Shown here: positions 5,797-63,157 of the stretch, piece by piece
Numbering within the stretch: the first letter of the stretch is position 1
Layout: every line of letters begins with the position of its first letter
Virus record (IMG/VR): IMGVR_UViG_3300030685_000353
Location: 9,506-73,505 of that record
Length of the DNA: 64,000 bases
Reading direction: 5' to 3' (one strand)
From: a virus
Program-made: the position numbers and the translations under genes
Notes under the pieces: model-generated
Seen by the model: only the letters and a program-made list of their open reading frames with translations
What the model was told of the DNA's origin: nothing
Database searches by the model: none

Positions 5797-7638
5797 TCAC
5801 ATAAATTCTTTTACGTAACTTATGTCATCACGTTTTTCATCATTGAGCTGACTTAATTCTACTACTGCAGTCTTAAAACGATCAGTTGCAGTATCTATCA
5901 TATCTTCTACAACATAGCCAAAATCTTCAGATAAACAAAATGTTGCACCATACATTGTAGTTACTGCTACGTCATCATATCCTGACTGTGATGAATACGA
6001 TCCTTTATTGTTTATACCGAATGCACTTAGTTCATTATACGTGGTCTCTTCTGTGACTATTATTCGTTTTTCTAGTACAAGCTTTCTCAATTCACGACAG
6101 AACATCATCTTATTATGTTGGTACAATCTTATACCCATCGAGAAAAATCTTGCCTTTTCATTATGTCTAGTATGTAAGAATATCTCATCGTAATAGTTTT
6201 CATTTTTACGCAGTTTTTCTACAAAATAATCGCCTTTGAAGTTCATTTCTAGCGCAACTTTTATGTTCTCTGTTTTGAAAACTTCGAAAAATAAAATTTC
6301 GGCTATCTGTGCCACATCTTCTACAGCCGTAAGATTCGATCTATACATGCCGACTTGTCTTAGTCTAAAGAAACTTCGTTCATCTTCAATTCTATCTTTT
6401 CTCAATTTTCTCATAGAAGCTATACTCATCTCTTCTATTTTAAAGATATTAATTACTGAAAAATCTCGCCCTACTCCATCGGCTAAATCGACTGTAAATG
6501 TAAATTTATCTGTATCTTTTATCTCATCTAAATTAAAGTCTGGATGCCACTTTAAGTCTTTATATTTTATATCGCTGAATTCGAATGCATCAATCTGTTT
6601 CCATACATATTTCTTTACGATCTTTTTTAGATAACGTAATGAATCAGACGTTAACAACAATGAATCTGATGAAATAAATTGGTTACCGTACTCTTGATTG
6701 AATAGTTCTTCGGAACCCAAATTGGCAATTTCTCGTTTCTTCCAATTTTCATCTCTACCTGGTACTTGCCACCAATCTACACGGAATGCAGAATACTCAT
6801 TCTTGCCATCTTGTCCGGGTTCTTTCAGAGCATTTGAATAAATTTCCCAGAACTTATTTTGACCATTAGCGGTCGAGGTTATGATTACACGTGAAATCTG
6901 TGATGATGAAAGTGTAGGATATACAGAACGATAGAACGGTTCAATAAAGTTACCATGGATATGGGCAAACTCATCCATGAATAATAAGTGTAATGTAAAA
7001 CCGATAGCTGCAGTTTTAGTAGTACTCTGACACATGATTCTACATCCATTGTCAAATTTCATTGTCATTACGTTATTCTGAGCTATGCCAGGTTTCATGA
7101 AGAATGGTAATCCCTTTATGACAGATTTTGTCTTGTCAACGATTTCAGCAGCAGTAGCACCTTTATTCGCTAATACCATGACATTCTTTTCAATATTGAA
7201 TAAAACGTACCATGCTATAAATATACCAGTCATAACAGTTTTACCAATTTGTCTACTAGCTAGTACAACAGACCATCTATTATGTTGATAATGGCGTAAT
7301 AAATCTTCTTGATACGGTCGTAAAGTGATTCTTCGTATGCCTTCATCAGTCATTGATACGGCATAATTATTTGCGAAATAGACAATATCATTTGCACATT
7401 TTACAAGCTCTGAAAGTTCATAGTCTGTGTACTCGTATACTAGATCAGCTCCCTTAAAGTCGATATCACCTTCATAAAACGGGGAGCCTCCTATTGGGGG
7501 ATTTCCATTCTCTATCTGTGCACGTAATTCATTAACAAGCTCAGTGTTCCAAACCCTTATTTTTCCATGTTGTTGACCAGATCGTTGATTTTGTTTAAGA
7601 TTTCTATTTGTTAATGGTTGATTCATGTTAAAATCCAA
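5797..7638 (-). CDS. terL: Terminase large subunit (T4 gp17-like)
   Basis: LRPYQ, Walker A SRQIGKT, Walker B LFMDEFAH, ITSTANG, FNQEYG, nuclease VDLADGVGRDFS and DDVA; start may be 7626. Confidence 0.95.
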   Translation of the reverse strand: MDFNMNQPLTNRNLKQNQRSGQQHGKIRVWNTELVNELRAQIENGNPPIGGSPFYEGDIDFKGADLVYEYTDYELSELVKCANDIVYFANNYAVSMTDEGIRRITLRPYQEDLLRHYQHNRWSVVLASRQIGKTVMTGIFIAWYVLFNIEKNVMVLANKGATAAEIVDKTKSVIKGLPFFMKPGIAQNNVMTMKFDNGCRIMCQSTTKTAAIGFTLHLLFMDEFAHIHGNFIEPFYRSVYPTLSSSQISRVIITSTANGQNKFWEIYSNALKEPGQDGKNEYSAFRVDWWQVPGRDENWKKREIANLGSEELFNQEYGNQFISSDSLLLTSDSLRYLKKIVKKYVWKQIDAFEFSDIKYKDLKWHPDFNLDEIKDTDKFTFTVDLADGVGRDFSVINIFKIEEMSIASMRKLRKDRIEDERSFFRLRQVGMYRSNLTAVEDVAQIAEILFFEVFKTENIKVALEMNFKGDYFVEKLRKNENYYDEIFLHTRHNEKARFFSMGIRLYQHNKMMFCRELRKLVLEKRIIVTEETTYNELSAFGINNKGSYSSQSGYDDVAVTTMYGATFCLSEDFGYVVEDMIDTATDRFKTAVVELSQLNDEKRDDISYVKEFM

Positions 7639-8152
7639 ATTTTGTAGACATGATTAGACCGCGTTTATTTGTCATAAAGTCTTTTAATGACAAATCACTG
7701 TTTAACCATGCATCTAGCAAATCTTTATCGTAGATAATAGTACACTCTTCTGCTGATATTGAAGGAGTATCTTCAAATACATATCTCTCTTTGACATTTT
7801 TCGGGGCATATTCGATAGTTTCTAACTTAGCACAATGTCTACAGTAGAAGCTTAGATCTATTCTTTCAGGTGCTCCCCTTAATGTCTTTAACTCATCACA
7901 GTTAAGAAGAAGTAATGTACCACAAATTATACGTGGACCTCCTTCTAATGATTCAATATGAGAATTAGCACAAGAAAAATATCCATCTACTGTACCAATC
8001 TGTAACGGTAAAAAAGATTTAGCTGTTACTTTGCTAGTTCCTAACCATTCTAAATTACCATGTACATCAACTTCACCCTTTTCATTGATAGTATACGGTT
8101 CCTTTTTTGAGGTAGGGTTTTTTATGAGTGACTTTAATTCTTGTATCGTCAT
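7628..8152 (-). CDS. LRR-like repeat protein (SLEGxP repeats) with C-terminal KFGF tag
   Basis: Repeats IESLEGGPRII / LKTLRGAPERI / LETIEYAPKNV; ends KRGLIMSTKFGF. Confidence 0.7.
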   Translation of the reverse strand: MTIQELKSLIKNPTSKKEPYTINEKGEVDVHGNLEWLGTSKVTAKSFLPLQIGTVDGYFSCANSHIESLEGGPRIICGTLLLLNCDELKTLRGAPERIDLSFYCRHCAKLETIEYAPKNVKERYVFEDTPSISAEECTIIYDKDLLDAWLNSDLSLKDFMTNKRGLIMSTKFGF

Positions 8153-8802
8153 TTTATTTCTTCAAATTTATCTTGTCCTTGCTCTTTTATAGCATCATGT
8201 AAAAGTCCGATAAGTCCTCTTGTTCCTCTAAATTTAGAGCTATCTTGTTGTCCCATGACTTCTACGTCACCTTCTCCGACTTCTAGAACTTTTTCTGCTT
8301 TAGAATTTTCATAGTCAAATTTAAGATTCTTGTAATTGTTTTCCATTACAACCATGAATTGTGCTAAATGTTTTACTATCTCCATTTTTGATTTCTGAAG
8401 AGAAGCTAAAACTTCAAATGATCTAGCATGTAAATTACCGTTATCAATTTCTTCCAGTAATTTTTTTATTGCATGTTCAGAGGTTTTCATTTGGGATATT
8501 AAATCGGATACTGTCAATTTATCGACCGACATCTTTTGTTTAACATATTCATGCTCCACTACAAACTCTACAGGCAGATAAAGTAATACCACTGATTCTA
8601 CTATTTCTTCTGCTTTATTGTCAGTTTCTTGTTGTAATACGGCATAGTTAAGAGGTTTAATTGAACTCATAGCAGGCAAATCAACTTTACCAGCTTCTTT
8701 TACTTCGGCTAAATCAGTCCGTAAAATTGTATTTTCGAGGTCTTCAGCGATCTTTTTTAAATGATCCATGTGCTCGTTCGTTGTATTTCGGTTAGTTTTC
8801 AT
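8149..8802 (-). CDS. Probable terminase small subunit (gp16-like)
   Basis: Helical; ARSFEVLASLQK resembles the gp16 PRAxEV motif; upstream of terL. Confidence 0.5.
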   Translation of the reverse strand: MKTNRNTTNEHMDHLKKIAEDLENTILRTDLAEVKEAGKVDLPAMSSIKPLNYAVLQQETDNKAEEIVESVVLLYLPVEFVVEHEYVKQKMSVDKLTVSDLISQMKTSEHAIKKLLEEIDNGNLHARSFEVLASLQKSKMEIVKHLAQFMVVMENNYKNLKFDYENSKAEKVLEVGEGDVEVMGQQDSSKFRGTRGLIGLLHDAIKEQGQDKFEEIK

Positions 8803-11556: not shown

Positions 11557-11559
11557 TTT

Positions 11560-12300
11560 TTAATGTTTTAAAGTTTTAAAAGATTTATTTTCTATTTGTA
11601 TATCGAAATCTCGTATTTGATTTCGAGTAATTCTATTTCTATGTACACCAAAGAAATCAGATGCTTTCTTTATAGAGATAAATTCATAATGTTCATGCTT
11701 CCTATAGACATGAACTGTTACACCCTTATTTCCAGGCTTACGTTTGCTCAATATTTTATCTCTCTGTTCAGCTGTCCAGGATTTCCCTGATAGTGCTTCA
11801 GATAAATGTTTACAGTGTTCAAGAGTTCGCGGAGGTAGTTTTATACCAAGATGTGAATTTCGCAATTTGTCTTTAGCTTCGTCAGTATGTGTTTTATTGT
11901 ACATCCCATTTTTATAGCCTGACACTTTCTCACTTATCAATGTTCTAAGTTTTTCTATATCAGCCGGAAGTCTATCTTTTGACCACCCATTCCTGAAATT
12001 TTTCACGAATTTAGATAGATTACCTCCTTGACCACCTGATACAAGGTTGTAACTCATCTTGTCATTTACTGCATCAGTTTGCTCTATCCATATAGCTTCT
12101 CTCTGAGAAAGTTGTTCAAGGGTTTCGCACTCTTCTAATATTTCCTTCTTAAAATTTTCTTTGCCATATTTCTTAATAGCAGACAAGATTGCAGTACCTG
12201 AACCCAGATACCCGTAATAGTTTTTAGCATCTTTCCCTATGTACCATTTGCCGTTTATTTGATTTACAGTTTTGTATATGACCATACCTTTATAGAACAC
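11560..12300 (-). CDS. GIY-YIG homing endonuclease with NUMOD3-type repeats
   Basis: VIYKTVNQINGKWYIG, YLGSG, KYGKENFKKEILE, YNL..GG.GG, then GMYNKTHTDEAKDKL; free-standing. Confidence 0.9.
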   Translation of the reverse strand: MFYKGMVIYKTVNQINGKWYIGKDAKNYYGYLGSGTAILSAIKKYGKENFKKEILEECETLEQLSQREAIWIEQTDAVNDKMSYNLVSGGQGGNLSKFVKNFRNGWSKDRLPADIEKLRTLISEKVSGYKNGMYNKTHTDEAKDKLRNSHLGIKLPPRTLEHCKHLSEALSGKSWTAEQRDKILSKRKPGNKGVTVHVYRKHEHYEFISIKKASDFFGVHRNRITRNQIRDFDIQIENKSFKTLKH

Positions 12301-12348: not shown

Positions 12349-12684
12349 TTATAGTCCGAAAAGTTTCTGTCCAAATATAGAAATAACAGTTAATGCAAAC
12401 TGAACTATAGCAAATATTGTAACTGCTTTCGTTTTAAATGTTTTCAGATCATCGATCTCTTTCACCATTGCTGCTAATTGAGTAGTCGATATAACTTCAT
12501 CCATTTTTTGTTTCCACTGTCTTAATTCATCAACTTTGTCTTCGCGATCTTTCATAATCGCAAGCTCCTTTTTGATGTCTTGTATTTCTGCATTTAGCTC
12601 AACTATACCTTTCGATAAGGTTTCTAACTCCTTAAGAACGAGTCTTGAATATTCGTTCCACCCGTTTTGTCCATTTTCAGCCAT
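12349..12684 (-). CDS. Coiled-coil protein with C-terminal transmembrane helix
   Basis: Heptad pattern followed by AVTIFAIVQFALTVISIF. Confidence 0.6.
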   Translation of the reverse strand: MAENGQNGWNEYSRLVLKELETLSKGIVELNAEIQDIKKELAIMKDREDKVDELRQWKQKMDEVISTTQLAAMVKEIDDLKTFKTKAVTIFAIVQFALTVISIFGQKLFGL

Positions 12685-15271: not shown

Positions 15272-16132
15272 TCATATCAGATATGTATCTAGATCATACG
15301 ACAGAGCATTTTTTAAAATATCGCTTCCGAGAATAGAAATAGCTATTGCTGCAGCTATTCTAGAATTAAATAGACCAGGTTGACCAGAATTTTTAGTATA
15401 AGCTGATATGTACGGTTCACCGTCATCATTTAACGATATTTCAGATATCGTTCGCTTATCGCATTTTGACAATACACTTGCTATCCTACGTATACGTTTT
15501 CTATTCTTCAATTTTTCTATCTCAGATAGAGCTATTTCTATTTCACCAAATTCTAATGCTCCTCCACTTACTGACCACCCATCTTCATGAAATTCCTCAC
15601 CTTTATCTTCGATACTAATTTGTAATTTATAACGAAGACTCGATGTGTCGTCAGATATGAAAGAAGATTTAGCAAGCTCATACATATAGTCAGGTATAAA
15701 CTCTATCAAGTCTTCTTTTTGCGTTTTAAAAAATTTACGTTCAGGCGTATTGATGTCTAAAAAGACATATAGCATTTTATGACGTAATCTGTCATATTCC
15801 ATACCCTGTAGTATCAATGGGTAATCTTTATCTTTTACTGTAAATACTTTACCGTTTTCCCAGCCTTTATTTTTTCTATACGGAATATAGAAATCATAAG
15901 TCTGTTCGAATGAAGCTAATGAAAACGTATCAGCTGATACGTTTTCATATAGTGTATTTCCATTTATGTCTTCTACCCAAATCTTCTTTTTGTAGGTTCC
16001 TTCTACTCTTGTAACAATACAAAGATTTTGATCATCATCTAGTAAAATGTCATTTAATCTTGGAGTATGCCATTCTCTTAATGACCAGTCTTTATTTATT
16101 ACATCTTTACTTGCACGATCTTGTTTTAACAT
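15272..16132 (-). CDS. Hypothetical protein
   Basis: 286-aa ORF translationally coupled to the upstream gene. Confidence 0.65.
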   Translation of the reverse strand: MLKQDRASKDVINKDWSLREWHTPRLNDILLDDDQNLCIVTRVEGTYKKKIWVEDINGNTLYENVSADTFSLASFEQTYDFYIPYRKNKGWENGKVFTVKDKDYPLILQGMEYDRLRHKMLYVFLDINTPERKFFKTQKEDLIEFIPDYMYELAKSSFISDDTSSLRYKLQISIEDKGEEFHEDGWSVSGGALEFGEIEIALSEIEKLKNRKRIRRIASVLSKCDKRTISEISLNDDGEPYISAYTKNSGQPGLFNSRIAAAIAISILGSDILKNALSYDLDTYLI

Positions 16133-16554
16133 TAGAATCCAAACTTTCTGCTCATTATTAATCCTCTATGCGCCTGACGTTCCTCAGCTGTCTTAAAAAT
16201 CTTAGAGCCTATTTTTTCCCACCCTTTTAGCTCTTGGTTAGCTCGTTTAATAACTTTATTTATGCATTTTATGATCGAAGCATCACCATCTTCATCTACT
16301 ACACCTACATATTGACGATCTCCAGTCCAGATAGTATATTTTACTGGTTCTTTTACTTCATCATTTTTATGATATATCATGATTTTAAATGCGATATCTT
16401 TTGGAATATCTCCATGAGGCGATATAATTACATCTTCATGAAACTTAAATGTTATAGTACCATTTTTCTCCTGTCTTTTAGTAGAAGCGTAAACTAATCC
16501 TAAAGCTAGAAGCTTATCATATTCTTTAAATTTCGTGAGCTGATCGATATTCAT
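16132..16554 (-). CDS. Hypothetical protein (STxRQxKNGT family) with KFGF tag
   Basis: EYDKLLALGLVYASTKRQEKNGT; ends AHRGLIMSRKFGF. Confidence 0.7.
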   Translation of the reverse strand: MNIDQLTKFKEYDKLLALGLVYASTKRQEKNGTITFKFHEDVIISPHGDIPKDIAFKIMIYHKNDEVKEPVKYTIWTGDRQYVGVVDEDGDASIIKCINKVIKRANQELKGWEKIGSKIFKTAEERQAHRGLIMSRKFGF

Positions 16555-16568: not shown

Positions 16569-17822
16569 TTAAAATAGAGCTGAAGAACCCGAGTTTGCTC
16601 CTTTAGATGTACCAAGTTTTATGCCAGATGTTACTGGCTTGCCTAATACTCCAACATTATCTTCTGCTCCAACAAATGATCCACCATATCCCTGAGGTAC
16701 AAAGCTTTTCTTATCAGTCCACCAATGTGTTCCTTCTAAGATTTGCTCTCTTGCCATATTAATAGGAGAAGATGTTATTTCATTCGATATAAGTATGAAT
16801 GCATTTTGTATTTCTTTCGGGATAACGTCGAAATTAAGTATAACGAGTGTAATGTTTCTGTGTATAAGTTTTTGAATATCGTCTTTCTTATAGACAATTC
16901 CGTTAGATTTATATACAGTATTCACTGCATCTACAAAAAATTCTGTCATTTCTCCAGATTGAAGATTCTGCCAAGTAACAGGAGATAAAGTAGCTAATGC
17001 CTTATCTAATTTGGAATCAGTCATTCCACGTGTTTTTGTAACGTCTTTTTTATCTATCCATGTGATTACTCCTGGTACTGCATCACCACCGTCTCCTAAG
17101 ATAACTTTACGTGTTGCTACTCTATCAGGATCAGTAATCTGATGATCATTGTGACTAAGCAATATGTCTAAAATGTTGCTTGTTCCTGCCCAACTTTCTG
17201 GATTAAATAAATTGAACAAATCGTCACCGGTAGTATCATTTTCAACATCATTTACAAGTCTAGAATCATAAGTTTCTTGTGTTAATATGATTCTTCTTCT
17301 ATTTGATACTGGATCTAAAACGATAGTAAACGATCCGTTTTTATGAGTCTGAATACACTGGTGTAAATCTCGGTCACCTGTAACAAGCATTACAGATTCT
17401 CCTATGTCATTAAGTCTTCTTGACCATAAAAACAAAAGATCATCAGCTTCTGCATCTTTAACCTTTGATATTATATATCCTTTAGATTGTAAAATTTCAC
17501 CAAACTCGTTCGTTAATTCATAGAATGAAGTCCAATCTATTGTAGGTTTTTCTTCATCATGGGCCCGGTTACTTTTATATCCTCCTCCGTCTATCGGAAT
17601 CTTTTTCCTCCATGAGTTAGAGTCTAAGCACACTATAACTCTATTTACATTTTCTATTGATTTGACTAATGCAGCAAAATCAGTAGCAAGCTTTCTAATA
17701 AAAACTCCCTTGGAATCATCAGATTCCAAGAGAAGTTGTCCTTTTTTTACACCGTAATTACCAATCGTAAATAAAGTTCTATAAAATATGCCACTTGCGT
17801 CTATAACAAGATTTAATTTCAT
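16569..17822 (-). CDS. rnh: 5'-3' exonuclease / RNase H (T4 rnh, PIN/FEN family)
   Basis: LVIDAS, SWRK, YKSNR, EADD, TGDRDLHQ, ILGDGGDAVPG. Confidence 0.88.
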   Translation of the reverse strand: MKLNLVIDASGIFYRTLFTIGNYGVKKGQLLLESDDSKGVFIRKLATDFAALVKSIENVNRVIVCLDSNSWRKKIPIDGGGYKSNRAHDEEKPTIDWTSFYELTNEFGEILQSKGYIISKVKDAEADDLLFLWSRRLNDIGESVMLVTGDRDLHQCIQTHKNGSFTIVLDPVSNRRRIILTQETYDSRLVNDVENDTTGDDLFNLFNPESWAGTSNILDILLSHNDHQITDPDRVATRKVILGDGGDAVPGVITWIDKKDVTKTRGMTDSKLDKALATLSPVTWQNLQSGEMTEFFVDAVNTVYKSNGIVYKKDDIQKLIHRNITLVILNFDVIPKEIQNAFILISNEITSSPINMAREQILEGTHWWTDKKSFVPQGYGGSFVGAEDNVGVLGKPVTSGIKLGTSKGANSGSSALF

Positions 17823-42451: not shown

Positions 42452-43135
42452 TTATTTAGCTATAAAGTGAACTGAAAGCATACCGGGTGAGTCTGTGGCT
42501 GGAGCGATCATTACGTCTTTCCAACCGGCTTCCAAGTAGAGTGCCTTGACTTCTTCTAGAATATCGGTGCTTATGCCCTTTGCGTTAATAAAAGAGTGAA
42601 TGAAACCGTCTTCTCTAACGTCTTTCGGGTTAGCGTCTTTAACATGAGCTTCGAAGATTGCCACTGTTTCTTCAAGGGAAAGATCGGGGAAGAACTTTTT
42701 AGGCCCGGTTACAGAGAATGGGCTTTCTTCTCCTACTGGAGGAAGAGAAATGGGCCAGATACCAACCATATCGGCTTCTTTAACTTCATATCCTGAATCA
42801 TGGGCTAATGCTTGAGCTTCTATGAATCCGATTCGAGTTCCTGGTGCATTAACCAGTACGGCATAGAATGATTCAGGGTCTCCATTATGAATATCAAAGA
42901 CTACGAGGTGGTTTGGATCGGGCATACCTCTGTGTACTGGAATCAACCAACTTTCTGGATAACCAAATTTGTCATCTTCTTCAATGAGGTTCATTTGAGG
43001 ATGTGACCTTAATAGAAAGGTGATGTTAATGTTGTTCTTTTCGAAGCCGGAAATACTCCAATTTCTGTTTGATATGAGGATGCAGGGGTTACATCTTGCA
43101 TCTGAAATTTCTGATTTGAAAATAATTTTGTCCAT
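42452..43135 (-). CDS. Early hypothetical protein
   Basis: Bounded by promoter copy 43149 and a hairpin at ~42402-42438. Confidence 0.65.
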   Translation of the reverse strand: MDKIIFKSEISDARCNPCILISNRNWSISGFEKNNINITFLLRSHPQMNLIEEDDKFGYPESWLIPVHRGMPDPNHLVVFDIHNGDPESFYAVLVNAPGTRIGFIEAQALAHDSGYEVKEADMVGIWPISLPPVGEESPFSVTGPKKFFPDLSLEETVAIFEAHVKDANPKDVREDGFIHSFINAKGISTDILEEVKALYLEAGWKDVMIAPATDSPGMLSVHFIAK

Positions 43136-43196
43136 TTGATTTTATTATTTGATTACAATACAAATATAATACAATTCTAACGAAGTGTAAAACGTA

Positions 43197-43559
43197 TCAA
43201 TAATTATGTAATCTAAGTGTGTGGTCGATATAAAAATCTACAAGGGACTCGATGAATCCATTTCCTTTCGGGAGGTACAGTTCAGAATAATCGTTGGTTA
43301 AAATTTCTTCACGTTTTCCCATTATTGTAACTGTGATGCATTCCTCGTTTGAACCGAAAGTCTTCGTGAATTGTTGGAACTCGTACTTTTCAGTTATTTC
43401 GTCACCATTTCTGAATTTAATGGAGATGTCTGATTCGCATTCGTCTACAGTACCGGTTACTTCTTCTACGAGGTGATGCCATCTCCAATTTTCGACATTT
43501 CCTGCTTCTGCCTTGATTACAGTGGCATCACCTTGTAGTTTTAAAAGTGTCTTTAACAT
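43197..43559 (-). CDS. Early hypothetical protein
   Basis: 120-aa ORF. Confidence 0.55.
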   Translation of the reverse strand: MLKTLLKLQGDATVIKAEAGNVENWRWHHLVEEVTGTVDECESDISIKFRNGDEITEKYEFQQFTKTFGSNEECITVTIMGKREEILTNDYSELYLPKGNGFIESLVDFYIDHTLRLHNY

Positions 43560-44133
43560 TTCTTTTTCCCTTTCTTTTTCTCAATTAGAGGTTTAGGGGC
43601 TAAAGAAGATCGGAACCATGCTGCATTTGCGAAAGAAAATTCTGGTGCTTCTTCTTTTTGAAAGAGTTCAGGGTGGCGGGTTCCTGATGCTATGGATTGT
43701 GCTACGGCAGAATTTGTGTCTACCGAACGTGCTGAATGTTTAAATCCTGATAAAGTTTTGTCTTGTACGTCTCCGATATGTCCTGATCTCATAATGTATA
43801 ATTTTATATTGTTGTTTTTAATTACAATACAAATATAATACAATTCTAACAGTGTAGGAAACGCTACTCAATTTATTTATTCATGATGTTTTTTACAATT
43901 ATAAATCCGTGCTCTTCTGGAACGTACTATTGAGGTGACTACTGCAATAATGATCGATTCTGCATTGATCAAGATTACGTCCCCTATTTTCGGTCTGATG
44001 CGGTCTGAATTGAACTGTGTCGTTCGACCTCTGTGCAAAATCTTGATTATATGTTTCATGTGGCTTAGCAGACGCATAAGGCTTTGTGCCTTTGTGCCCA
44101 TATAGTGCGCAATGTTTGTCTTAAATGTACAAG

Positions 44134-44170
44134 AAACTGCATCCTTATAATTGTTAAGGATGCAGTTTTT
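44134..44170 (-). terminator. Strong hairpin after the H1-like gene
   Basis: AAACTGCATCCTTA-taattgt-TAAGGATGCAGTTT. Confidence 0.7.
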
Positions 44171-44187
44171 ATATTTCCTTACCCGGA

Positions 44188-44760
44188 TTAATTATGGGCT
44201 AGGATGGCTTTTTTCAATTTGAAAATCTTTTTGTTACCTTCGATTTCGATACGTAACCATTCATCTCCTTTTTCATCTTTGTCGTAAACTTTCAGGAGTT
44301 TTCCTTCTTGAACCCCGGCTGATCGGAATTTTGAATTTCGGGCTGGGAGGAATGATACGATTTGGTCAGCTTTAAGAGCGGTTTCCGGAGTCATAAGGTT
44401 GGTGGCGTTCGGTGTGATACCATCGATAACTTTCGGAGTAAGTTTTACCTTTGCAGGTTTTTCAGCTTTTGGTGTTACCACTTTTTCAGCTTTTACTTTG
44501 GCCACTTTTTCAGCTTTTGGTTTTTCAGTTTTTTCCTTGGCTACCTTTTCAGTTTTAGGTGCTTCTGTTTTTTCAGCTTTTGGTTTGGCCACTTTTTCAG
44601 CTTTTGGTTTTTCAACTTTTGCCTTTGGAGCTGTTTTTTCGTTACGAGATGCTACGATTTCTTGGGCTGAGGCTAAATCTTCAGGAGATAAGTTACCAGT
44701 AGCGATTTTTTTGTTAAGTTCAGTTGTACTGAATTTTGACATTGGGTTTGTTGTTGACAT
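44188..44760 (-). CDS. Histone H1-like Lys/Ala/Pro-rich protein
   Basis: Repeated PKAEKVAK/EKPKAEK units between small globular ends. Confidence 0.7.
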   Translation of the reverse strand: MSTTNPMSKFSTTELNKKIATGNLSPEDLASAQEIVASRNEKTAPKAKVEKPKAEKVAKPKAEKTEAPKTEKVAKEKTEKPKAEKVAKVKAEKVVTPKAEKPAKVKLTPKVIDGITPNATNLMTPETALKADQIVSFLPARNSKFRSAGVQEGKLLKVYDKDEKGDEWLRIEIEGNKKIFKLKKAILAHN

Positions 44761-44799
44761 AATTTCTAAGTTTTTGGAAGTTTATAAAATTGTTATTGA

Positions 44800-45021
44800 T
44801 TAATTACTATACAAAAATAATACTTTTTGAATGAATGGTAAAAAGTATTTCAAATTATTTTTTCGTTTTGTAAAAGAAATGTTTAGTTTGATTTACTATA
44901 CAAAAATAATACTTTTTGACTGAATGGTAAAAAGTATTTCAAATTATTTTTTACGTTAAAAAATAATGTTTGGTTTGATTTACTATACAAAAATAATACT
45001 ATTCTATAGGTTAGTAAAACG
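44800..45021 (-). repeat. Three tandem promoter copies (~88-bp period)
   Basis: TTACTATACAAAAATAATACT at 44804, 44893 and 44980; the first two units also share TGAATGGTAAAAAGTATTTCAAATTATTTTTT. Confidence 0.85.
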
Positions 45022-45816
45022 TATCGAAAAAATTATTCCTCTATAATAAGTTTATTTTCGAACATAGAAGGAAATTCGGTAACGTTCTCACCTTCTATTT
45101 CTAGCATCTTACATACTATTTTTTCTTGCTTGTCATGGACAGTAATTTTGCCGTACGAATCAAATTGAAGCTCTATGCCTAATTTAGTCATCAGGTCTTC
45201 AATCTGTCTGAGTTTCTGAGTTGTTGGATGTGTCTCCAGTAGTCGCTTTGCCATCTTTGTGATCATTTATTAGTGGTACAAATATCATTAGTGCTAGTAA
45301 AAGTGTAGCGACTAAGAATGAAAAAATTAACTCTTCGAAAATATTGAGTTCCATTAGTCGAGGATTTCAAATTCTGCTTCCTCTACAACTCTAACTTCTG
45401 CTGTGGCGAGGTAAATGAATACCAAAAGTGCCATAATTTCAAGATCTGTCATATTATTGTTATGTTTTAATTACAATACAAATATAATACAATTCTATCA
45501 GCTGGGGAAAAGTCTGGTCAATAATTTTGTTTTAACCAAGACTTGAAGCTATTCTTTTTATTTCGTTGATCGTTTTGAGTCTTAAGCGTGGCATAGAATA
45601 TGTCGTACTCTTTATAAATTTCATCCCAACTTGGCTTCGTGAAGTCGTTTTTAGGATAGGAATACATTTCGTACCCTAATCGATCTACCAATTTACGGGC
45701 TGAGGCTTTCATTTCGTCATCGTGACAATCATTTTGATAATTTCCTAATGCCACTGCTATTAAAGCTATCTCTTTACACGATAGTTTCGTTTTTATTACT
45801 CCATTAATGTCCATAA

Positions 45817-46032
45817 TTATCTGTATAAAATTACATGTTCACCGAAATATTTTTCAAATACACTTATAAGATTCTCGTAATCTCCAGAGGTTAATTCAGC
45901 TTGAATTGCGTCGTGGTCGAGGCCGAGTTGTTTAGATAAGTCGCTGGCATATCCAAGTAATACAAATGCATTGCCTTGTGGTCCAGTCAGATCTAGACTT
46001 GGATATTCCGGTTCAATTTTTTTCCTTATCAT
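45817..46032 (-). CDS. Small phage protein
   Basis: LDLTGPQGNAFVLLG...SGDYENL. Confidence 0.7.
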   Translation of the reverse strand: MIRKKIEPEYPSLDLTGPQGNAFVLLGYASDLSKQLGLDHDAIQAELTSGDYENLISVFEKYFGEHVILYR

Positions 46033-46095
46033 TTTTTTATTATTTGATTACAATACAAATATAATACATTTCTAACAAATGGTAAAAAGCTTTAC

Positions 46096-46890
46096 TTAAA
46101 AACCGAACTTTTTTCCTAAAATTTGTCCCCGTCTTGTATGAACCTCTTCATGTGATAATAATACTATACATTCATTTCGCTTCAATTCATTGTAGCCGCT
46201 TCTCCATTTCTTGTAGAGCAGATCTGCAGCTTTATCCCATCCTTCTTGGGTTTCAGCGATGAATGCCTTATCCTCGTAAAATAAAAATGCATTCCCTTTA
46301 ACACCTATTGTAGCATTTTGATTCATTTTGGCATATCCATAACCATTGAACTGTGCCCATGAATTTCGAGTACATATTAATCTCATTGTGAAAAAGTTAC
46401 TCAAGTCAAATAGTTCATTTTTCGAGTCGATTATTACAAAATGAGGCAATGTTAATAAAATGCCAACCTCAGTGTCAGAGTTTATGTAACTTATATTGAA
46501 GCCAGCTTTTTTGTATTTTTTTAATTCAGTGTGCTTTGCCTTACGGAGTAAAGATTCAGAGTCAATATTTAATTCTCTAAGGCGTTGCTCCTCTTCATTT
46601 TGTTTTATCCTTTTAAGGAGCTTTAATAACCCATTCTTCCACCCTTCTAAAGTGTCAGGAATAAAACTTACGCATGGTCTATTGTCGCAATTTATTTTTC
46701 CGCCATGATAAATTTGATATGACACTTTATAATCATCATTATTGTATCGCTGACGTGATTTTAAGGCCTTTATTTTAAATGTCGTTACAGCTTGCCTATT
46801 CGTTCTAATATTCTCAAAGCCCATCTTCAGAATCTCTTGATATTCAGGGAGGTTCTCAATTACTTTGCGGGTGGTTTCATCAATAATCAT
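46096..46890 (-). CDS. STxRQ-family protein with KFGF tag
   Basis: LPEYQEILKMGFENIRTNRQ; ends HTRRGQILGKKFGF. Confidence 0.7.
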   Translation of the reverse strand: MIIDETTRKVIENLPEYQEILKMGFENIRTNRQAVTTFKIKALKSRQRYNNDDYKVSYQIYHGGKINCDNRPCVSFIPDTLEGWKNGLLKLLKRIKQNEEEQRLRELNIDSESLLRKAKHTELKKYKKAGFNISYINSDTEVGILLTLPHFVIIDSKNELFDLSNFFTMRLICTRNSWAQFNGYGYAKMNQNATIGVKGNAFLFYEDKAFIAETQEGWDKAADLLYKKWRSGYNELKRNECIVLLSHEEVHTRRGQILGKKFGF

Positions 46891-47028
46891 AAAAGTTATT
46901 TTTAATTACAATACAAATATAATACAATTCTTCCAACTGGCAAAAAGTAAACATAAAAAAGTGGCCCCTCTTCACAGAGAAACCACCCGGTGGCCGAAGC
47001 CGTGTAATCAAAAATCTTATGAAACTCT

Positions 47029-47743: not shown

Positions 47744-47884
47744 ATGAAGGTGATAGCTTATATTCTACTCGGCATTCTTCTTACAATTGGTCTAGCTTAT
47801 GGAGGATTTGTGCTCTGGGCTAACCGTATATTGAAAGATTTTGTAATAGGTGACTTAGATTTTGATGAAGACGAAATGATTTAA
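47744..47884 (+). CDS. 46-aa single-pass membrane protein (not in ORF track)
   Basis: MKVIAYILLGILLTIGLAYGGFVLWANRILKDFVIGDLDFDEDEMI; late-like GATATATAAAC upstream. Confidence 0.5.
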   Translation: MKVIAYILLGILLTIGLAYGGFVLWANRILKDFVIGDLDFDEDEMI

Positions 47885-48303
47885 AACCCGAATTTTCGTG
47901 ACTTAATCATGCCTCGCTTGACATGTTTCCATTCTTCCCATAATGTATATTCTGATTTCTCGAACAGTTTCCAATCAGTAGGAAACTCTTCTTTGATAAA
48001 TTTATAGCTCAAACGTATTGCCATAATGCGAGTTGCTACAGAAGACCAAGGAAGATCTGCAATGATGACTTCCTGATGCATTCCTACGACTACTGTTTCT
48101 ACCTTACCCTCAACTGGCTTAAAGTAAAAAACTTGGGCCTTAAGTGCTGGCATATTTTGTAATCCAGAAGTATTTGTGCAATGATCTGAAAGTATTTTAT
48201 CTAAGTACCAAGAACCCTGTTCAGTCACAAGAACAGGGGCAATCCCCTGTTCCCATGGCCAAATACCTAAGCATTCCAGTATTGTATCAACCTTTGTGTT
48301 CAC
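47881..48303 (-). CDS. Hypothetical protein with KFGF tag
   Basis: Ends HVKRGMIKSRKFGF. Confidence 0.7.
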   Translation of the reverse strand: MNTKVDTILECLGIWPWEQGIAPVLVTEQGSWYLDKILSDHCTNTSGLQNMPALKAQVFYFKPVEGKVETVVVGMHQEVIIADLPWSSVATRIMAIRLSYKFIKEEFPTDWKLFEKSEYTLWEEWKHVKRGMIKSRKFGF

Positions 48304-49559: not shown

Positions 49560-51503
49560 TTAAAACAAACTATGGCTAGCTGATTTATCCGGGTTTTGCG
49601 TTCCGGTATTTTCGTCTATTGGAGGCAGTTCACTGAATAGTTCTGTATATGTCATAATCTTGACTCCTCTTAGAGTGGCTTGTGACATTTTACCAGAGCT
49701 TGAAGAGTGTGAATCAGTTAAGAGGATTTTTGCCTCTTTAAGTCCACAGTGATAATATCCATGCTTACCGAGGAACTTTTCGAGGTCACCTTTCGTTTTG
49801 AAACCAGAAGATGATGGAGAACCGGTCATTTCATATCCGATACCACCTTGGACATCTATTTCATTTTCGATTGTAATACCACGATCTTCGAGTAGCTTTT
49901 TAAAGTTGTAGACTTTTACCCATTTAGGATCATTTATTTCAAATCCATCTACCGCTTTCTTTTCGAGGCCGCTGAATGAGAATGTCTGACCAGCTATTTT
50001 TCTAGCTAACTGTTTGGATGCAGTATGTCCGATGCCGTCGAAGCCAAGAGCTAGTATGACTCTAAAGAAAGGTATTATGGTTACCTTATCAATTTCTTCA
50101 AGCAATGCATCCAGGGTTCTTCCTTCCTTGAATTCGCCGGTTTCAATTAGCTTTTCCTTATTGAACTTTTCTTTGTCGAATAAGTCCACTATGGATGTAT
50201 ATCCGGCTTTATAGAGGGTTCGTGCTGTTTCAGTACCAAAATATGCGAGTTTAATAGTTCCAATTCCACCTCTGAAGCGTCTGAACATTTTTCCTTCGCA
50301 TTCCTCGTTTGGACACATTAGGTGAATCGTATCGACTACAGTAGGAGTGCCACATACCGGACATGTTAGCGGGTAGTGAAATAACTTTTCATTACCGGGC
50401 TTATTGACCTTTGCGATAATCGGAATAATATCTCCCGATTTAACAATGGTTACTTCGGCACCCGGATAAAGCTTTTCACGGATAATATAGCCAAGGTTAA
50501 AACCTGCTGTGTTCTGAATCGTTGTCCCGTCAAGGTCGATTGGGTTTAAGCGGATGATTGGCGTAATTTCTCCTGTGGTTCCTACTGTGAATCGATAGTC
50601 TTTTACCGTGGTTCGTGCTTCCTGAGGTGGAAACTTGATTGCGATGGCCCAATTTGGGTGGTGACCTGTATCCCCCATTTCTTTCCTCATATGTTCCGGT
50701 GCTTTAACAACGAAACCATCTAGCTGATATAGCGAATCATTTTCACGATGGGCTTTCATTTCCCAATACACTTTTTCAAATTCTATAGCTTTGAACTTGA
50801 TAGTGAAGGGTACAGGTAGATTTTGAGATGTTAACCAGGTCTGTGTATCTTTTGGGAAATCGTAATCACCGTCATGAAGCCGAACTTCTACCGGTAAAAA
50901 TTCTATATCCTTTGTACTTTCTGTAATCTGGTCTGTGTTTAACATACCAGCTACAAAATTTCTGGAATTTTTAATTTCGGGCTGTATTGCCTTATATTTA
51001 AGGTAATTGGCAATTGAAAGGATAGCTTCGCATCGTATTTCTACGTCTCCGGTAATTCCTTTCAGAGTCTTGGGAACTTTATTGATGAATTTTGGGGTCA
51101 AATCTTTACCATATTCTTTATCTCCTCTTGAAAGAGTTTGAAGGTATCTACCTGTTTTGTAGATATGGTTAATTGCATTACCATCGAACTTAGGTGAACC
51201 TTCGAATTCAGTATCAACTGGAAACTGAGTGAACCATTTTTTCATTTGTTCTAGTGGTGGTACTCCAGCTAATGTAGCTTGGTGTTTTGCTAGGCTACAC
51301 ATCATACTTAAATGAGGGTATTTCTGTGTCCTATCAGAGGTAGTACCTACAATTTCAACTACTTCAGAACCCATTTCTCTTAGGGTTTCCTCTAATTCAT
51401 CAAATTCTGCATCTGACATGATTTCTTCTCCAGCATAATATGCTTCTTTTGCTTGGAGATATAATGCTTCCAATTGAATTTGTTCCTTTGTCTTTTTTGC
51501 CAT
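49560..51503 (-). CDS. ligA: NAD+-dependent DNA ligase
   Basis: YY...MSDAEFD, KFDG, SRGD, DGFVVK, WAIAIKFP, KSGDIIP, Zn finger CPVC..CPN..C, HhH and BRCT-like end. Confidence 0.95.
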   Translation of the reverse strand: MAKKTKEQIQLEALYLQAKEAYYAGEEIMSDAEFDELEETLREMGSEVVEIVGTTSDRTQKYPHLSMMCSLAKHQATLAGVPPLEQMKKWFTQFPVDTEFEGSPKFDGNAINHIYKTGRYLQTLSRGDKEYGKDLTPKFINKVPKTLKGITGDVEIRCEAILSIANYLKYKAIQPEIKNSRNFVAGMLNTDQITESTKDIEFLPVEVRLHDGDYDFPKDTQTWLTSQNLPVPFTIKFKAIEFEKVYWEMKAHRENDSLYQLDGFVVKAPEHMRKEMGDTGHHPNWAIAIKFPPQEARTTVKDYRFTVGTTGEITPIIRLNPIDLDGTTIQNTAGFNLGYIIREKLYPGAEVTIVKSGDIIPIIAKVNKPGNEKLFHYPLTCPVCGTPTVVDTIHLMCPNEECEGKMFRRFRGGIGTIKLAYFGTETARTLYKAGYTSIVDLFDKEKFNKEKLIETGEFKEGRTLDALLEEIDKVTIIPFFRVILALGFDGIGHTASKQLARKIAGQTFSFSGLEKKAVDGFEINDPKWVKVYNFKKLLEDRGITIENEIDVQGGIGYEMTGSPSSSGFKTKGDLEKFLGKHGYYHCGLKEAKILLTDSHSSSSGKMSQATLRGVKIMTYTELFSELPPIDENTGTQNPDKSASHSLF

Positions 51504-52172
51504 ATTGATTGTTTTAATTACAATACAAATATAACACATTTCTCTTCAATGCCAAAATGCTATCAAATTTTTTTGATAGCATATTTAAAGCTCTTTGCTC
51601 AGTTGCATTGTAGAAGAATATGAAGTATCTGTCTATACAGAATATGTTCTGCATTCTGGAAACATGATCTAACCATAATTCTTGACGGGTAAATCTTGTC
51701 TTATAACTTACGCTTAATTGTTCTTCAAATATGTCGTAACTTGAATGATCAAGATCAGCGTATTCAGTAGGTGTCAATTCTACATAATTAGCATACTTGA
51801 ATATTGTACGTATACGTGATATACGATCGTCGATTCTGGATATCCTTAGAATTCTCATCGTAGTGTCCCCTGCAATCTGTTTATTTCATAGCGTAGTTCT
51901 TTAGCTTCGTCTGAAATGAAACTTTTTAAGTTGGCGTATCGAGCTTCTAATGCTTCAATTTGTATACTCGCTGCGATCTGAGTATTTCGTTTTTTCGTGC
52001 CATATGCTGGTTCGCAGTAGTTCGGGTCCTCTTTATTGTCTTTTCTAACTGAAAGGGGGCGTAAACCAGAGAAGTCATAGTCATCTTTTTTCATAACCTT
52101 TATGGAACGTGTTAGTTTAAATTTGGTTCCAATACAAAGGTAAACAAAAGAAGTTGTGTTAGAAAACGCAGC

Positions 52173-58401: not shown

Positions 58402-58458
58402 ATTGTTATGTTTTAATTACAATACAAATATAATACAATTCTATTCAATGCCAAAACG

Positions 58459-58923
58459 CTAAAACCCAAATTTGCGTCCTACTATCAGGCCTCTCTTTAA
58501 GTGTCTTTCCTCTGGAGACTTGTAAATCTTATACCCTGCATTCTCTAAGTACCGAATCTCCTTTATAAATTCTGTAATTATATGTTTAAATCTCAGGTTC
58601 CAGTCATTTACTGTCATTAAATCAGTATCACGAACACGAAGTTTATTCGTCCGTACAGGATTTGATCTACGCTGTGTTACTTTGTAACACTTGCCGTCTT
58701 TGTTAAATGTGATAGAGTAGTTATGCATATTCTTACCAGCAGGAACTTCGATATGTGCTGGGTCAAATGATAACATGATCATGTTATTGCCATCAATTTT
58801 TACGTCACTTATTTTAATGCCGAGGTCTTCTATCTGTTTGAATCCTGCAAATTTTTTCACGTCAGATAGTGTATATCCAGCCTTCTGCTTCTCTTTCGCC
58901 TTTATGAATAAGTTAGAACCCAT
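58459..58923 (-). CDS. STxRQ-family-related protein with KFGF tag
   Basis: VKKFAGFKQIEDLG; ends HLKRGLIVGRKFGF; likely start MGSNLF. Confidence 0.7.
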   Translation of the reverse strand: MGSNLFIKAKEKQKAGYTLSDVKKFAGFKQIEDLGIKISDVKIDGNNMIMLSFDPAHIEVPAGKNMHNYSITFNKDGKCYKVTQRRSNPVRTNKLRVRDTDLMTVNDWNLRFKHIITEFIKEIRYLENAGYKIYKSPEERHLKRGLIVGRKFGF

Positions 58924-59704
58924 ATTTTTTTGACAATATAAGACCCCTATGTGCATGGCGATCTTCTTTAGACTTCCAAACTTTGAAATGTTTATTTTTT
59001 TCCCATGATGTGAGCTTCTTTGAACATATTCGTGTTATATGGTTAAATGCATTATTCCACCCTTCTTCAGTACGAGGATCGAAACTTCCATTTGGACAAG
59101 TTCCCCATTGCGCGGATCCACCTCTCCATGAATGACGATAAGTTACAGTTCGAATGTAACCCGATTCACCAAATAGTGAAATTCGTTCATTGTAAAAATC
59201 ATCAAGAGATGGTGAATCACTATTGTCTTCAGGGATCATTAAAAAGTCAAGTGGCCATCCGAAAGAAAGAGTCATATTCTTAATCTGTTTCGGAGTTGAA
59301 GCTAATACCCATCCTGTATCAATGAACTGTTTATATGCTGGAAGTGCTTTAACTTCTTCTAATGTCAAAATTTTATCTCCAGGACGAAAGCCTGTTTCTG
59401 CGACAGCTTTACCATGCTTATTTTGCGGTATGTATTCTCCGTCACATATAAAAATTTCTTTATCGTATCTTGTACCAGCTGGACTCCACCAAACCATATC
59501 GAGGTATGCGTAGACTCCATCTGTATATTTTTCTACCCTTTTCGTGTATCTAAATTCTAGGGGTTCACTAAAGGCTTCCTTTTCAAAAAACTCTATTAAA
59601 AGGTGTATCTTTTCGGCGATAGTCCCTTTTCCTAGTTTGATTTTCTGTATACCTTTATCGATATTGGCAGCTACTGCTTTGTTATAAACTCTTGGAGTAC
59701 TCAT
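58913..59704 (-). CDS. STxRQ-family protein with KYGF tag
   Basis: LPAYKQFIDTGWVLASTPKQIKNMT...SGYIR; ends HAHRGLILSKKYGF. Confidence 0.7.
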   Translation of the reverse strand: MSTPRVYNKAVAANIDKGIQKIKLGKGTIAEKIHLLIEFFEKEAFSEPLEFRYTKRVEKYTDGVYAYLDMVWWSPAGTRYDKEIFICDGEYIPQNKHGKAVAETGFRPGDKILTLEEVKALPAYKQFIDTGWVLASTPKQIKNMTLSFGWPLDFLMIPEDNSDSPSLDDFYNERISLFGESGYIRTVTYRHSWRGGSAQWGTCPNGSFDPRTEEGWNNAFNHITRICSKKLTSWEKNKHFKVWKSKEDRHAHRGLILSKKYGF

Positions 59705-61757: not shown

Positions 61758-62201
61758 CTAGAACCCAAATATATGTGCTACTAGCTTAGTCTTTCTGTCC
61801 TTTGCGAAGTCTGCAAGTGTCATACCTGAGTCGTAAAAGTCTGGAGCCCATTCCATAGGCATTTTCGTCCTTTTCCATTCCTCAGAGTTCACGATTAGCA
61901 TGATCGTACTTTCCCTAGCCTGTATGCAAATTGCATTGATCTTTTCTTCGTAAGTCTCAAAGTTCGGCATCTTTGACATACGCTTAAGAATGTCGTACTC
62001 TTTCTTCAGAGCTTTTATCTTAAGTTCTGTAGCCTCATTTTTTCGCCTACAAATATCGTTCAATTTTTGTAGTTTTTCGCGTATAAAATTGTCTAATGTA
62101 TCGTCTAGCCATTGTGATGTCTTGGCAGCGATTCTCTTTTTACATTCCTCTTCTGATACAGGCGTTTTCAGACCAAGAAGTGACATTAAAAACTTATTCA
62201 T
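61758..62201 (-). CDS. Hypothetical protein with degenerate FGF tag
   Basis: Ends SGMTLADFAKDRKTKLVAHIFGF. Confidence 0.65.
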   Translation of the reverse strand: MNKFLMSLLGLKTPVSEEECKKRIAAKTSQWLDDTLDNFIREKLQKLNDICRRKNEATELKIKALKKEYDILKRMSKMPNFETYEEKINAICIQARESTIMLIVNSEEWKRTKMPMEWAPDFYDSGMTLADFAKDRKTKLVAHIFGF

Positions 62202-62456
62202 TGTTACAATATATTATTAATCAGGTGTCATGCAATGCATTGTCGAGTATCATAACGTATATCAGTATGGTACCTACCTCATAAGAGAAATGTTCTGAGT
62301 GAATTACCGTCATCACTTTTGAACCAGTTTCAGACAAAGGCAAGTCTGAAAGAGACTTGCAGCGTAGATAAAAGTCAATGAACCTGGCGATTTCATTTAA
62401 CAATACCTCTTCTGGAATGTTAAACTTCTCCGATGCCTGTTCTATGACCTCTAATT

Positions 62457-62909
62457 TCATTTCACAATTTTACTTCGTGGATGCATCAAAGCATTCATTC
62501 TGGCCAACGCATTCATTATTGCACCAGTCAGATCATCAATCGTAGCATGCTGGTAGGCAATGTCGTTGTAGTACTTTATCGAGTGGAAAGCTTCTTTGTG
62601 TTCCACCTTGAGCTTGTCATAAATCTCCTTGATCTGTGGCAAGTAGTTTTCTTCCACCGGAGCATCAGTACCGACCAATTTCAGTTCCACTTCCACCTGA
62701 AGAGTGATCCATCCAATAGGGTACTTGTCAGTTGATCCATCAGCATATGTCAATTGGCAGGTGAAGTCCTTTTCAGTAGATTCAATCTTGGTCACAGTCC
62801 TGCCGATAATCCAGTCGTCTCCTCGTACTGTTTTCAGATCTATGTCTGAAGTCTTGCCACCCATTCTTAAGTAGTCAGCGTAGCTTATTTTCATTGTCTG
62901 TCTCATCAA
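62457..62909 (-). CDS. Hypothetical protein
   Basis: 150-aa ORF coupled to its neighbours. Confidence 0.55.
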   Translation of the reverse strand: MMRQTMKISYADYLRMGGKTSDIDLKTVRGDDWIIGRTVTKIESTEKDFTCQLTYADGSTDKYPIGWITLQVEVELKLVGTDAPVEENYLPQIKEIYDKLKVEHKEAFHSIKYYNDIAYQHATIDDLTGAIMNALARMNALMHPRSKIVK

Positions 62910-63157
62910 AATCCGAATTTCTTGGTTATTTTTTCAATTCTCTGCTTCCGCCTAGCCTCTCTGTCCTCACAGACTGCATTGATCAAATATTCGTAGCTGA
63001 TCCTTTCGAATTCGATAAAGCTACATTGCAATGCATGGTAGAATTCTCGGAAAGTCCTTTGAACTCGCCTCCTTTTATCCATCTCATAAGCTTCCAAAAT
63101 CCATAAGTTGAACCCCGGAGGCTTAGCAGAAATTGTTGAGTGTAATGCTGAGTGCAT
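62906..63157 (-). CDS. Small protein with KFGF tag
   Basis: Ends RKQRIEKITKKFGF; start may be 63082. Confidence 0.55.
   Translation of the reverse strand: MHSALHSTISAKPPGFNLWILEAYEMDKRRRVQRTFREFYHALQCSFIEFERISYEYLINAVCEDREARRKQRIEKITKKFGF

Follow-up and report, generated by a model that had tools for sequence, protein, structure and literature searches.

Shared terminal tags on phage proteins are already known as a kind. T4-like phages load diverse fast-evolving proteins through a short common signal, and in the T4 internal proteins the capsid targeting sequence is N-terminal and is cut by the prohead protease. Tags recognised by AAA+ machines include those of the ssrA type and the basic MuA-type tags of ClpX, together with the MIM helices of ESCRT-III, which are read by Vps4/CdvC. 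Ankyrin-repeat proteins of poxviruses carry a C-terminal PRANC/F-box-like motif directed at the eukaryotic ubiquitin system. In PMC2988020, proteins that bind T4's sliding clamp are described as sharing a portable, interchangeable C-terminal docking motif. The subject of this report is a different C-terminal tail, for which neither a description nor a family was found and which is carried by eight open reading frames (ORFs) in a window of 64,000 nucleotides (the whole stretch of DNA analysed), comprising bases 9506-73505 of the 73.5-kb IMG/VR virus record IMGVR_UViG_3300030685_000353 (G000; 35% complete according to CheckV). At about an even chance, the tail is a portable C-terminal docking helix, that is, a common handle read by one partner.

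A tail confined to the extreme C-terminus

All eight ORFs lie on the minus strand and end in [KI][FY]GF followed by a stop. The C-termini given in the original prediction, which was made from the sequence alone, were recovered at minus-strand stops from 7628 to 62906 with identical readings. Eight of the 893 six-frame stop-to-stop frames of the window (≥ 30 amino acids (aa)) end in [FY]GF, and the sole internal [KRI][FY]GF in these frames is one KYGF (frame 28714-29445). ORF sets were made with a simple greedy caller, which gave 115 non-overlapping ORFs (19,330 residues) for the window. Here [FY]G[FILM] occurs 14 times internally and nine times terminally, the latter against 0.08 expected (binomial P 3.6e-16). 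The motif is not equally common inside proteins, as RG-x6-[FY]G[FILM] is found six times at the terminus and never internally. The ninth terminal case, ORF 12349-12684, which ends in FGL, was left out of the tag count as a coincidence because of its membrane-like segment and the lack of an RG core.

A tail profile of 22 residues was compared with all six frames of G000 and of G001 (291,426 residues), the latter being a 140-kb T4-like viral contig (57% complete according to CheckV) reached via a back-translated pattern scan of viral contigs. All 32 matches of ≥ 16.9 bits are at the extreme C-terminus, and the next-best score, which is internal, is 7.2 bits. As the profile was built from the same tails, detection is circular, though this does not apply to the lack of internal copies. 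When the last 40 residues were used for an exhaustive profile search of 1,835,955,588 proteins, 40 proteins were found at E ≤ 1e-3, with the match ending at the last or next-to-last residue in all 40; the ten that were looked up have metagenome sources only. The view that the tag always forms the last residues is therefore upheld in both searches.

The stops of the window tags are TAA (five), TAG (two) and TGA (one). Among the 32 tags of G000 and G001 the same residue is written with the same codon in 1429 of 3089 comparisons (46%), and the glycine at -2 is encoded by GGA (16), GGG (11), GGT (4) or GGC (1). Since the codons vary and all three stops are used, selection acts on the tag peptide, as had been proposed, and a DNA repeat is ruled out. 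A genuine DNA repeat is present directly 3' of three tagged genes, where it begins past the stop codon.

The tag was originally described as an 11-residue RGxIxxxKFGF. This core is present (as RGxIx[GSA]xK[FY]GF), but the conserved unit extends over ~20 residues and is predicted to be helical, with the consensus [ST]-x-[ED]-[ED]-[F/R]-x-H-x-[KR]-R-G-x-[ILV]-x-[GSA]-[KR]-K-[FY]-G-F-COOH. In 51 distinct tails, [FY]-3 and G-2 are invariant and F-1 is found in 46 (I or L in the others), preceded by R-11 (49), G-10 (46), [ILV]-8 (46), [GSA]-6 (50), K/R-5 (39) and K-4 (34). Further upstream are F-16 (33) and H-14 (26), with acidic residues at -17/-18 after Ser/Thr forming a helix N-cap, [ST]x[ED][ED]. 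Two window proteins, t61758 (...KTKLVAHIFGF) and t62906 (...RIEKITKKFGF), have no RG and score 18.7 and 22.5 bits, respectively, against the tail profile at their very ends.

In both AlphaFold2 models considered below, a single continuous helix, not a turn, runs through R-G. On a helical wheel (our own arithmetic) the conserved residues form a small stripe (G-10/[GSA]-6/G-2), a hydrophobic one (F-16/I-8/F-1) and a basic one (R-11/K-4). Small residues every four positions of the predicted helix, with flanking aromatics, would suit homotypic association, in which tails pack through the small-xxx-small stripe to give mixed oligomers, and many tagged proteins are encoded adjacently. However, the last 14 residues are strongly basic (mean net charge +3.6, range +2 to +6; 51 tails), which opposes self-association without a counter-ion; such packing is considered unlikely. 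Complex prediction for t16132 with t7628, aimed at contacts between the two tails or between tail and LRR, gave an ipSAE of 0.00 in both runs, which, lacking controls, counts neither way.

The net positive charge and the two invariant aromatic positions could also indicate that the basic aromatic K-K-F-G-F end holds tagged proteins on the nucleoid, phage DNA or transcripts. The last five residues presumably resemble the RNP1 strand core of cold-shock and RRM domains, yet the tail is predicted to be a helix rather than a strand. SAP, HeH and XRE-type helix-turn-helix domains were considered for the ...G-L-S-x-E-D-F...K-R-G... of the tail, and none of 31 + 10 tagged proteins matches SAP, HeH, HTH, CSD or RRM in Pfam. 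With no obvious use for a strict terminal position in such a binder, a nucleic-acid tether is rather improbable.

A membrane-targeting amphipathic tail was considered as well, since tails of the MinD/FtsA type are short, basic, hydrophobic and C-terminal. Against this, the last 11-18 residues have a helical hydrophobic moment of 0.14-0.18, lower than for shuffled tails (z -0.5 to -1.1), and for the last 11 residues the mean of 0.16 (z -1.0 against shuffles) is not that of an amphipathic helix; membrane targeting is extremely unlikely. There is no membrane-like segment in the tagged proteins, which look soluble.

When the last 24 aa were removed from 61 tagged proteins (some of them near-duplicates), the bodies fell into ~30 phmmer groups, the biggest of which is an LRR-like family with 19 of the 61. 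Related pairs keep the tail much more closely than the body, body identities of 40, 45, 42 and 51% being accompanied by tail identities of 20/20, 19/20, 17/20 and 14/20. Within the window, the original division of the bodies into one LRR-like, four related and three unrelated holds roughly in BLASTP comparisons. Thus t16132, t58459, t58913 and t46096 are interrelated (E 8e-6 to 5e-15), and t7628, t61758 and t62906 have nothing but the tail in common. The protein t47881 shares its last ~45 aa, and only these, with t58459. No untagged paralogs of the t16132 family were found in G000 and G001 at E < 1.

AlphaFold2 predicts t7628 (pLDDT 90.9, 16-row alignment) to be a short-strand solenoid, with β-solenoid strands in residues 20-127 (short and regularly spaced over 52-127) followed by helices at 134-140 and 143-152 and then a continuous tag helix at 156-172. 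Its repeats align with ...LxSLxGxPxxV... units of relatives, and its best Foldseek matches are weak ones to LRR and L-domain proteins (E 0.13 or worse). In contrast, t16132 (pLDDT 81.9, 13-row alignment) is predicted to be an α/β sandwich with a long helix at 91-114 and the tag helix at 123-138. Fold matches of t16132 are generic α/β or uncharacterised proteins (PDB best Z 6.4; BFVD best E 4.8e-3) and span residues 1 to ~116, stopping before the tail. The two modelled bodies thus differ in predicted fold, one being a solenoid and the other a sandwich. Portability, as originally claimed, is supported by two predicted folds and ~30 body groups, and the tag is best described as a portable, added C-terminal helix on bodies of different predicted fold. 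The LRR repeat unit also occurs in a protein of a Vibrio phage, which has no tail at its end.

The metagenomic LRR-like tagged proteins P0036, P0039, P0042, P0044, P0045 and P0020 start with M-K-x-(I/L)-x-x-F-x-x-F-(I/L)-N-E-S, from which t7628 differs. This start is reminiscent of the N-terminal signal for capsid targeting and cleavage on the internal proteins of T4.

No match in Pfam or PHROG at E ≤ 0.01 was obtained for the eight window proteins, and family thresholds of Pfam and PHROG were not reached by any of the 31 + 10 tagged proteins. Weak profile matches were obtained for one of 31 in Pfam (LRR_EndoS, E 4.2e-4) and one of 31 in PHROGs (phrog_2028, E 2.7e-4), and the ten further proteins gave nothing above the curated cut-off of Pfam. 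The tail profile has no meaningful match among PDB sequences, and look-alikes of the tail in the ESM Atlas are unspecific helical matches only.

Occurrence in other phage contigs and in bacterial loci

End-anchored pattern and profile searches of the proteome and its relatives, which the original prediction had proposed, found the tag in G001, G005 and others, always strictly terminal. In G001, 22 ORFs end in [FY]GF and two in FGL or FGM, giving 24 tagged ORFs. There are 26 occurrences of [FY]GF-stop in this contig, against four for the reversed control, and 23 terminal tags in its greedy ORF set against 0.22 expected. These are clustered, 17 of the 23 lying within the first 24.3 kb, a stretch with 48 of the contig's 238 ORFs (P 4.6e-9). 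G001 also encodes a T4-like portal, a Rad50-like ATPase, a topoisomerase subunit and a helicase. As almost no other genes are common to G000 and G001 (BLASTP), they seem to be different parts of related genomes, both records being genome fragments; they have a promoter-like consensus in common.

Three tagged ORFs were found in G005 (19.8 kb, 41% G+C) and one in G002, and G003 is almost a duplicate of the t7628 region. A metagenome scan added at least 22 further good cases (ORF ≥ 60 aa and ≥ 18 bits), several of them repeats of the same contigs; among the matches listed, one contig has three tandem tagged genes and two contigs have two each. The largest tagged protein (468 aa; L056:1940-6814, which is the 41940-46814 region of G001) is encoded directly 3' of genes for a MoxR-like AAA ATPase and a DUF2201 metallopeptidase/VWA protein.

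Other phages gave a different picture. No excess of [FY]GF-stop over the reversed control was seen in PTm1, PAU, two huge uncultured phages and the Vibrio phage with LRR homologs (7/10, 5/5, 15/15, 8/10 and 11/8, respectively). A tblastn search with a 58-aa tail-bearing protein against 50,697 GenBank phage records gave one irrelevant match (E 5), and a word-index homolog search with t16132 returned only itself. No description of the motif was found in the searchable literature. The statement that no description was known thus remains good, as the tag was found neither in Pfam, PHROGs or PDB sequences nor in GenBank phage records or the searchable literature.

A scan of viral contigs for GKKFGF-stop gave 38 stretches, of which four are already known true tails; the others have no RG core or are tiny frames, and there was no new tagged lineage among the 38. 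A family of long proteins unrelated to the tagged ones, on the viral contigs L275, L283, L291, L296, L299, L301 and L304, ends in ...SK(V/I)GSV(V/A)(K/R)SIGKKFGF. Their last seven residues are as in the tag, with no RG core and a Ser/Val/Gly-rich lead-in, and the ending may reflect either convergence on the same terminal hexapeptide or chance. The chief false positive of pattern scans was a conserved DNA element, ...RKRGRIFLRKFGF-stop, with a 39-aa frame, present in L009, L011, L012, L014, L017 and L019, in L016 and L020-L022, and in similar metagenome loci. Other copies of this element have in-frame stops, and it is probably non-coding.

Bacterial genomes were scanned with one genome per prokaryote species. 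Of 66 pattern matches, 63 were put down to chance, being tiny frames or having internal stops or Trp for stop, and three are real tagged ORFs of 127-299 aa, one on each of three contigs labelled Paludibacter, labelled Bacteroidia or, in the case of a 4.4-Mb chromosome, unlabelled. The tag is therefore not confined to phages, and in this respect the original prediction of a phage signal does not hold. In all three loci the tagged gene is within ~2 genes of an AAA+ ATPase and beside a conserved ~270-aa protein. The ATPase of two loci (554-559 aa) is IetA/IteA-like according to PADLOC and NCBIfam, with CdvC, Cdc48, FtsH and PAN next-best. A WYL regulator is present in two of the three loci, two loci also share two further small genes, and a serine-recombinase-like gene lies near the cassette in L151. 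By eye, the ~270-aa protein looks GIY-YIG-like (...GVYIWGF...PYYVG...), a tentative name, as it has no Pfam, PADLOC or NCBIfam match. The cassette looks like an undescribed defence-type system. Judged from sequence, at least three phage lineages carry the tag, as does one component of this rare bacterial cassette.

Genomic setting of the tagged genes

Coordinates of the tagged ORFs and of the cassettes are given in Table 1.

Table 1. Tagged ORFs of the window and bacterial cassette loci
Feature	Coordinates	Strand or source	Product	Tail coded	C-terminus and stop
t7628	7628..8152	-	174 aa, LRR-like body	7631-7690	...SLKDFMTNKRGLIMSTKFGF-TAA
t16132	16132..16554	-	140 aa, paralog family	16135-16194	...KTAEERQAHRGLIMSRKFGF-TAA
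t46096	46096..46890	-	264 aa, paralog family	46099-46158	...LSHEEVHTRRGQILGKKFGF-TAA
t47881	47881..48303	-	140 aa	47884-47943	...LWEEWKHVKRGMIKSRKFGF-TAA
t58459	58459..58956	-	≤ 165 aa, paralog family	58462-58521	...KSPEERHLKRGLIVGRKFGF-TAG
t58913	58913..59704	-	263 aa; paralog domain is the C-terminal half	58916-58975	...KSKEDRHAHRGLILSKKYGF-TAA
t61758	61758..62201	-	147 aa, degenerate tail	61761-61820	...GMTLADFAKDRKTKLVAHIFGF-TAG
t62906	62906..63157	-	83 aa, degenerate tail	62909-62968	...EDREARRKQRIEKITKKFGF-TGA
Cassette (G006)	L150:8460-13875	bacterial contig
Cassette (G008)	L151:8910-14365	bacterial contig
Cassette (G007)	L152:5893-10153	bacterial contig

The window is AT-rich (31-39% G+C), and its minus strand carries almost all genes. 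Its large ORFs include T4-like modules (tail sheath, T4-type large terminase and baseplate protein), replication genes (clamp-loader ATPase, 5'-3' exonuclease of the RNase H-like type and NAD-dependent ligase), a sigma-70-family factor and a homing endonuclease. The homing-endonuclease-like ORF (11560-12300, minus strand; phrog_314, E 2e-38) is in the replication module, directly 3' of the clamp-loader genes. There is no nucleotide-level match to the window among the 50,697 GenBank phage records. By terminase, the closest deposited phages (32-39% identity only) are huge uncultured phages, Sphingomonas phage PAU, Tenacibaculum phages PTm1/PTm5 and Prevotella Lak phages.

An 18-base promoter-like repeat, TTGTATTATATTTGTATT, has 23 copies in the window (≤ 3 mismatches; 0.6 expected) between 18550 and 63441, mostly on the minus strand from 36939 on. 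The copies are intergenic and usually have CGTTTTGG ~20 bases upstream. The repeat fits TTGGCA-16-TATATT, a -35/-10 pair of the sigma-70 type, and also a Bacteroidetes-type TTTG / TAnnTTTG pair; its copies probably mark ~20 early promoters. Eight copies of a close variant are present in G001. Several ORF starts in the list (MYYICIVIK..., MCYICIVIK...) come from reading through the repeat and are not true N-termini. From the terminase relatives, the two labelled bacterial contigs and the promoter consensus (which also fits sigma-70-type hexamers), the host is tentatively placed in the Bacteroidota.

Six of the eight tagged genes of the window lie past 36.9 kb, in the region with most of the 23 repeat copies. 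Copies are found at 46910-46927, just 5' of the start of t46096, at 46052-46069 by the same gene, and at 58421-58438, directly 3' of the t58459 stop. The start of t58459 is uncertain, as the listed one overlaps the end of t58913, and t47881 starts with GTG in the ORF list, its relative P0010 starting slightly differently. Two sets of small minus-strand paralogs have no KFGF tail. One (29907-30347, 31139-31669 and 31671-32177) has the N-termini MCLQTTHYF..., MCLKTTHFF... and MCLRTSQII..., and the other (33126-33785, 34889-35326 and 35323-35769) has MKIKSERITLLEQ..., MKIKSKKITLLEQ... and MQIESKRLTLKQQ...

The t7628 gene is directly upstream of the large terminase gene, amid packaging and tail genes. 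Such a position could be explained if the tail brought proteins into the prohead for injection with the DNA. However, most tagged genes are in regions rich in promoter-like repeats of the host-sigma type, outside the structural modules, and the tag also occurs in bacterial cassettes without a virion context, making virion loading very unlikely.

The t16132 gene is flanked by the RNase H-like gene and a 286-aa ORF (15272-16132). In a T4-like phage with a clamp loader, the tail might be a sliding-clamp binding motif, as on T4 gp43, gp33 and gp55, where clamp ligands share an interchangeable C-terminal motif. This is most improbable, because a tail with a charge of ~+3.6 is set against a T4 motif that is hydrophobic and acidic (PMC2988020). 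Moreover, none of the tagged proteins is a replication or transcription enzyme, and typical clamp clients end differently: the RNase H-like exonuclease (16569-17822, minus strand) in ...GANSGSSALF and the NAD-dependent ligase (49560-51539, minus strand) in ...DKSASHSLF. These two have a second common C-terminal ending in S-x-L-F after a Ser/Gly-rich stretch, which may be the clamp-binding motif of this phage. No clamp gene (PF02916) and no PDZ domain (PF13180) were found in G000 and G001, and there is no polymerase gene on the fragment. The 286-aa ORF was tried as a clamp; phmmer against the PDB and Atlas look-alikes gave nothing clamp-like.

A proposed common handle, its possible reader and known systems

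A docking helix would work in trans, as a common handle that lets one partner recognise all tagged proteins. Action in trans is suggested because the tail is independent of the body and better conserved than it, because a free C-terminus is strictly kept, and because T4 has interchangeable docking motifs. Several points weigh against this reading. No partner was found. Tail pLDDT is only 71-86, the alignments behind both models are shallow (13 and 16 rows), and the models were judged by secondary structure and pLDDT, so that packing of the tail on the body is possible. Enrichment of tagged genes in the early region of the window is not significant (6/9, P 0.24), about half of the ORFs being there. 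In addition, conserved residues are on every face of the predicted helix, which fits packing in cis on the tagged protein too, and in the six-member paralog family, all six of which are tagged, descent with the tail explains the sharing.

The last two points would also favour a structural C-terminal cap that came down from one or a few ancestors to fast-evolving descendants, in which the helix completes the fold and there is no common partner; divergence of small phage proteins does exceed the reach of sequence comparison. In contrast, the two modelled bodies differ in architecture, the LRR repeat body occurs without the tail in the Vibrio phage, and the fold matches of t16132 exclude the tail. 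A cap has no need for a strict end position, yet 40/40 and 32/32 matches are terminal. An inherited cap is quite unlikely.

For the docking helix, the leading candidate for the partner is an AAA+ machine of the unfoldase or segregase type, a possible but doubtful assignment. It is favoured because the classical-clade AAA+ cassette is the only recurring non-phage neighbour of the tag. By gripping the free C-terminal helix, a machine of this kind would bring about timed removal (the tail being a degron) or remodelling of tagged proteins. This link consists of three rare cassettes, the ~270-aa protein being present in one of 401 sampled genomes of the phylum, the query's own. On the phage fragments there is no homolog of any cassette partner, and the AAA-family genes found are the clamp loader and MoxR-like or weak matches, not classical unfoldases.

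That the bacterial AAA+ cassettes have the same tail suggests that host-phage conflict also involves recognition or use of the tag. In one unlikely scenario, the tail would be a label on about one in ten genes of the phage lineage with one reader (an AAA+ unfoldase or another phage or host hub), the host having copied it onto a bait in the cassette of AAA+ ATPase and putative nuclease, where handling of the bait or competition by phage tails would fire or disarm the cassette. If so, there would be an arms race over a common C-terminal tag.

No part of phage genomes is as poorly understood as the small early proteins. One conserved handle on 8 to 24 proteins per genome fragment gives experimental access to all of them together, and finding the hub could point to the target of the tagged protein class. 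With a protease or unfoldase as partner, the tail would be a genome-wide timing device of the phage; with a host hub, the LRR-like and other tagged bodies would serve as a set of adaptors directed at it.

AAA+ recognition tags are like the present tail in being terminal, short and transferable and in requiring a free C-terminus, and MIM is likewise a C-terminal helix with a classical-clade reader. A CdvC/Cdc48/FtsH-like ATPase is, by its sequence matches, the bacterial neighbour of the tail. The differences are that there is no sequence similarity and that no such ATPase was found on the phage fragments. For a C-terminal degron of an AAA+ protease, a candidate role of the tail, the context is classical-clade AAA+ ATPase neighbours in three of three bacterial loci.

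Capsid targeting in T4 is similar in that one short signal is carried by a variable set of fast-evolving small phage proteins; the present tag, in contrast, is C-terminal, lacks an evident cleavage site and is present in bacterial cassettes as well. Like the PRANC proteins of poxviruses, the tagged proteins include viral repeat proteins (here LRR-like, 19/61) with a short C-terminal motif that would couple the bodies to one host machine, although there is no homology and the tag is on non-repeat bodies too.

The T4 clamp motif, as described in PMC2988020, is also short, at the extreme C-terminus and on otherwise unrelated proteins of T4-like phages, and docks them all on a hub. It differs in being hydrophobic and acidic and in serving about three replication and late-transcription proteins. 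The present tail is basic and predicted to be helical with a G/[GSA]/G stripe, and is carried by 8 to 24 small proteins per fragment, or about ten times more clients.

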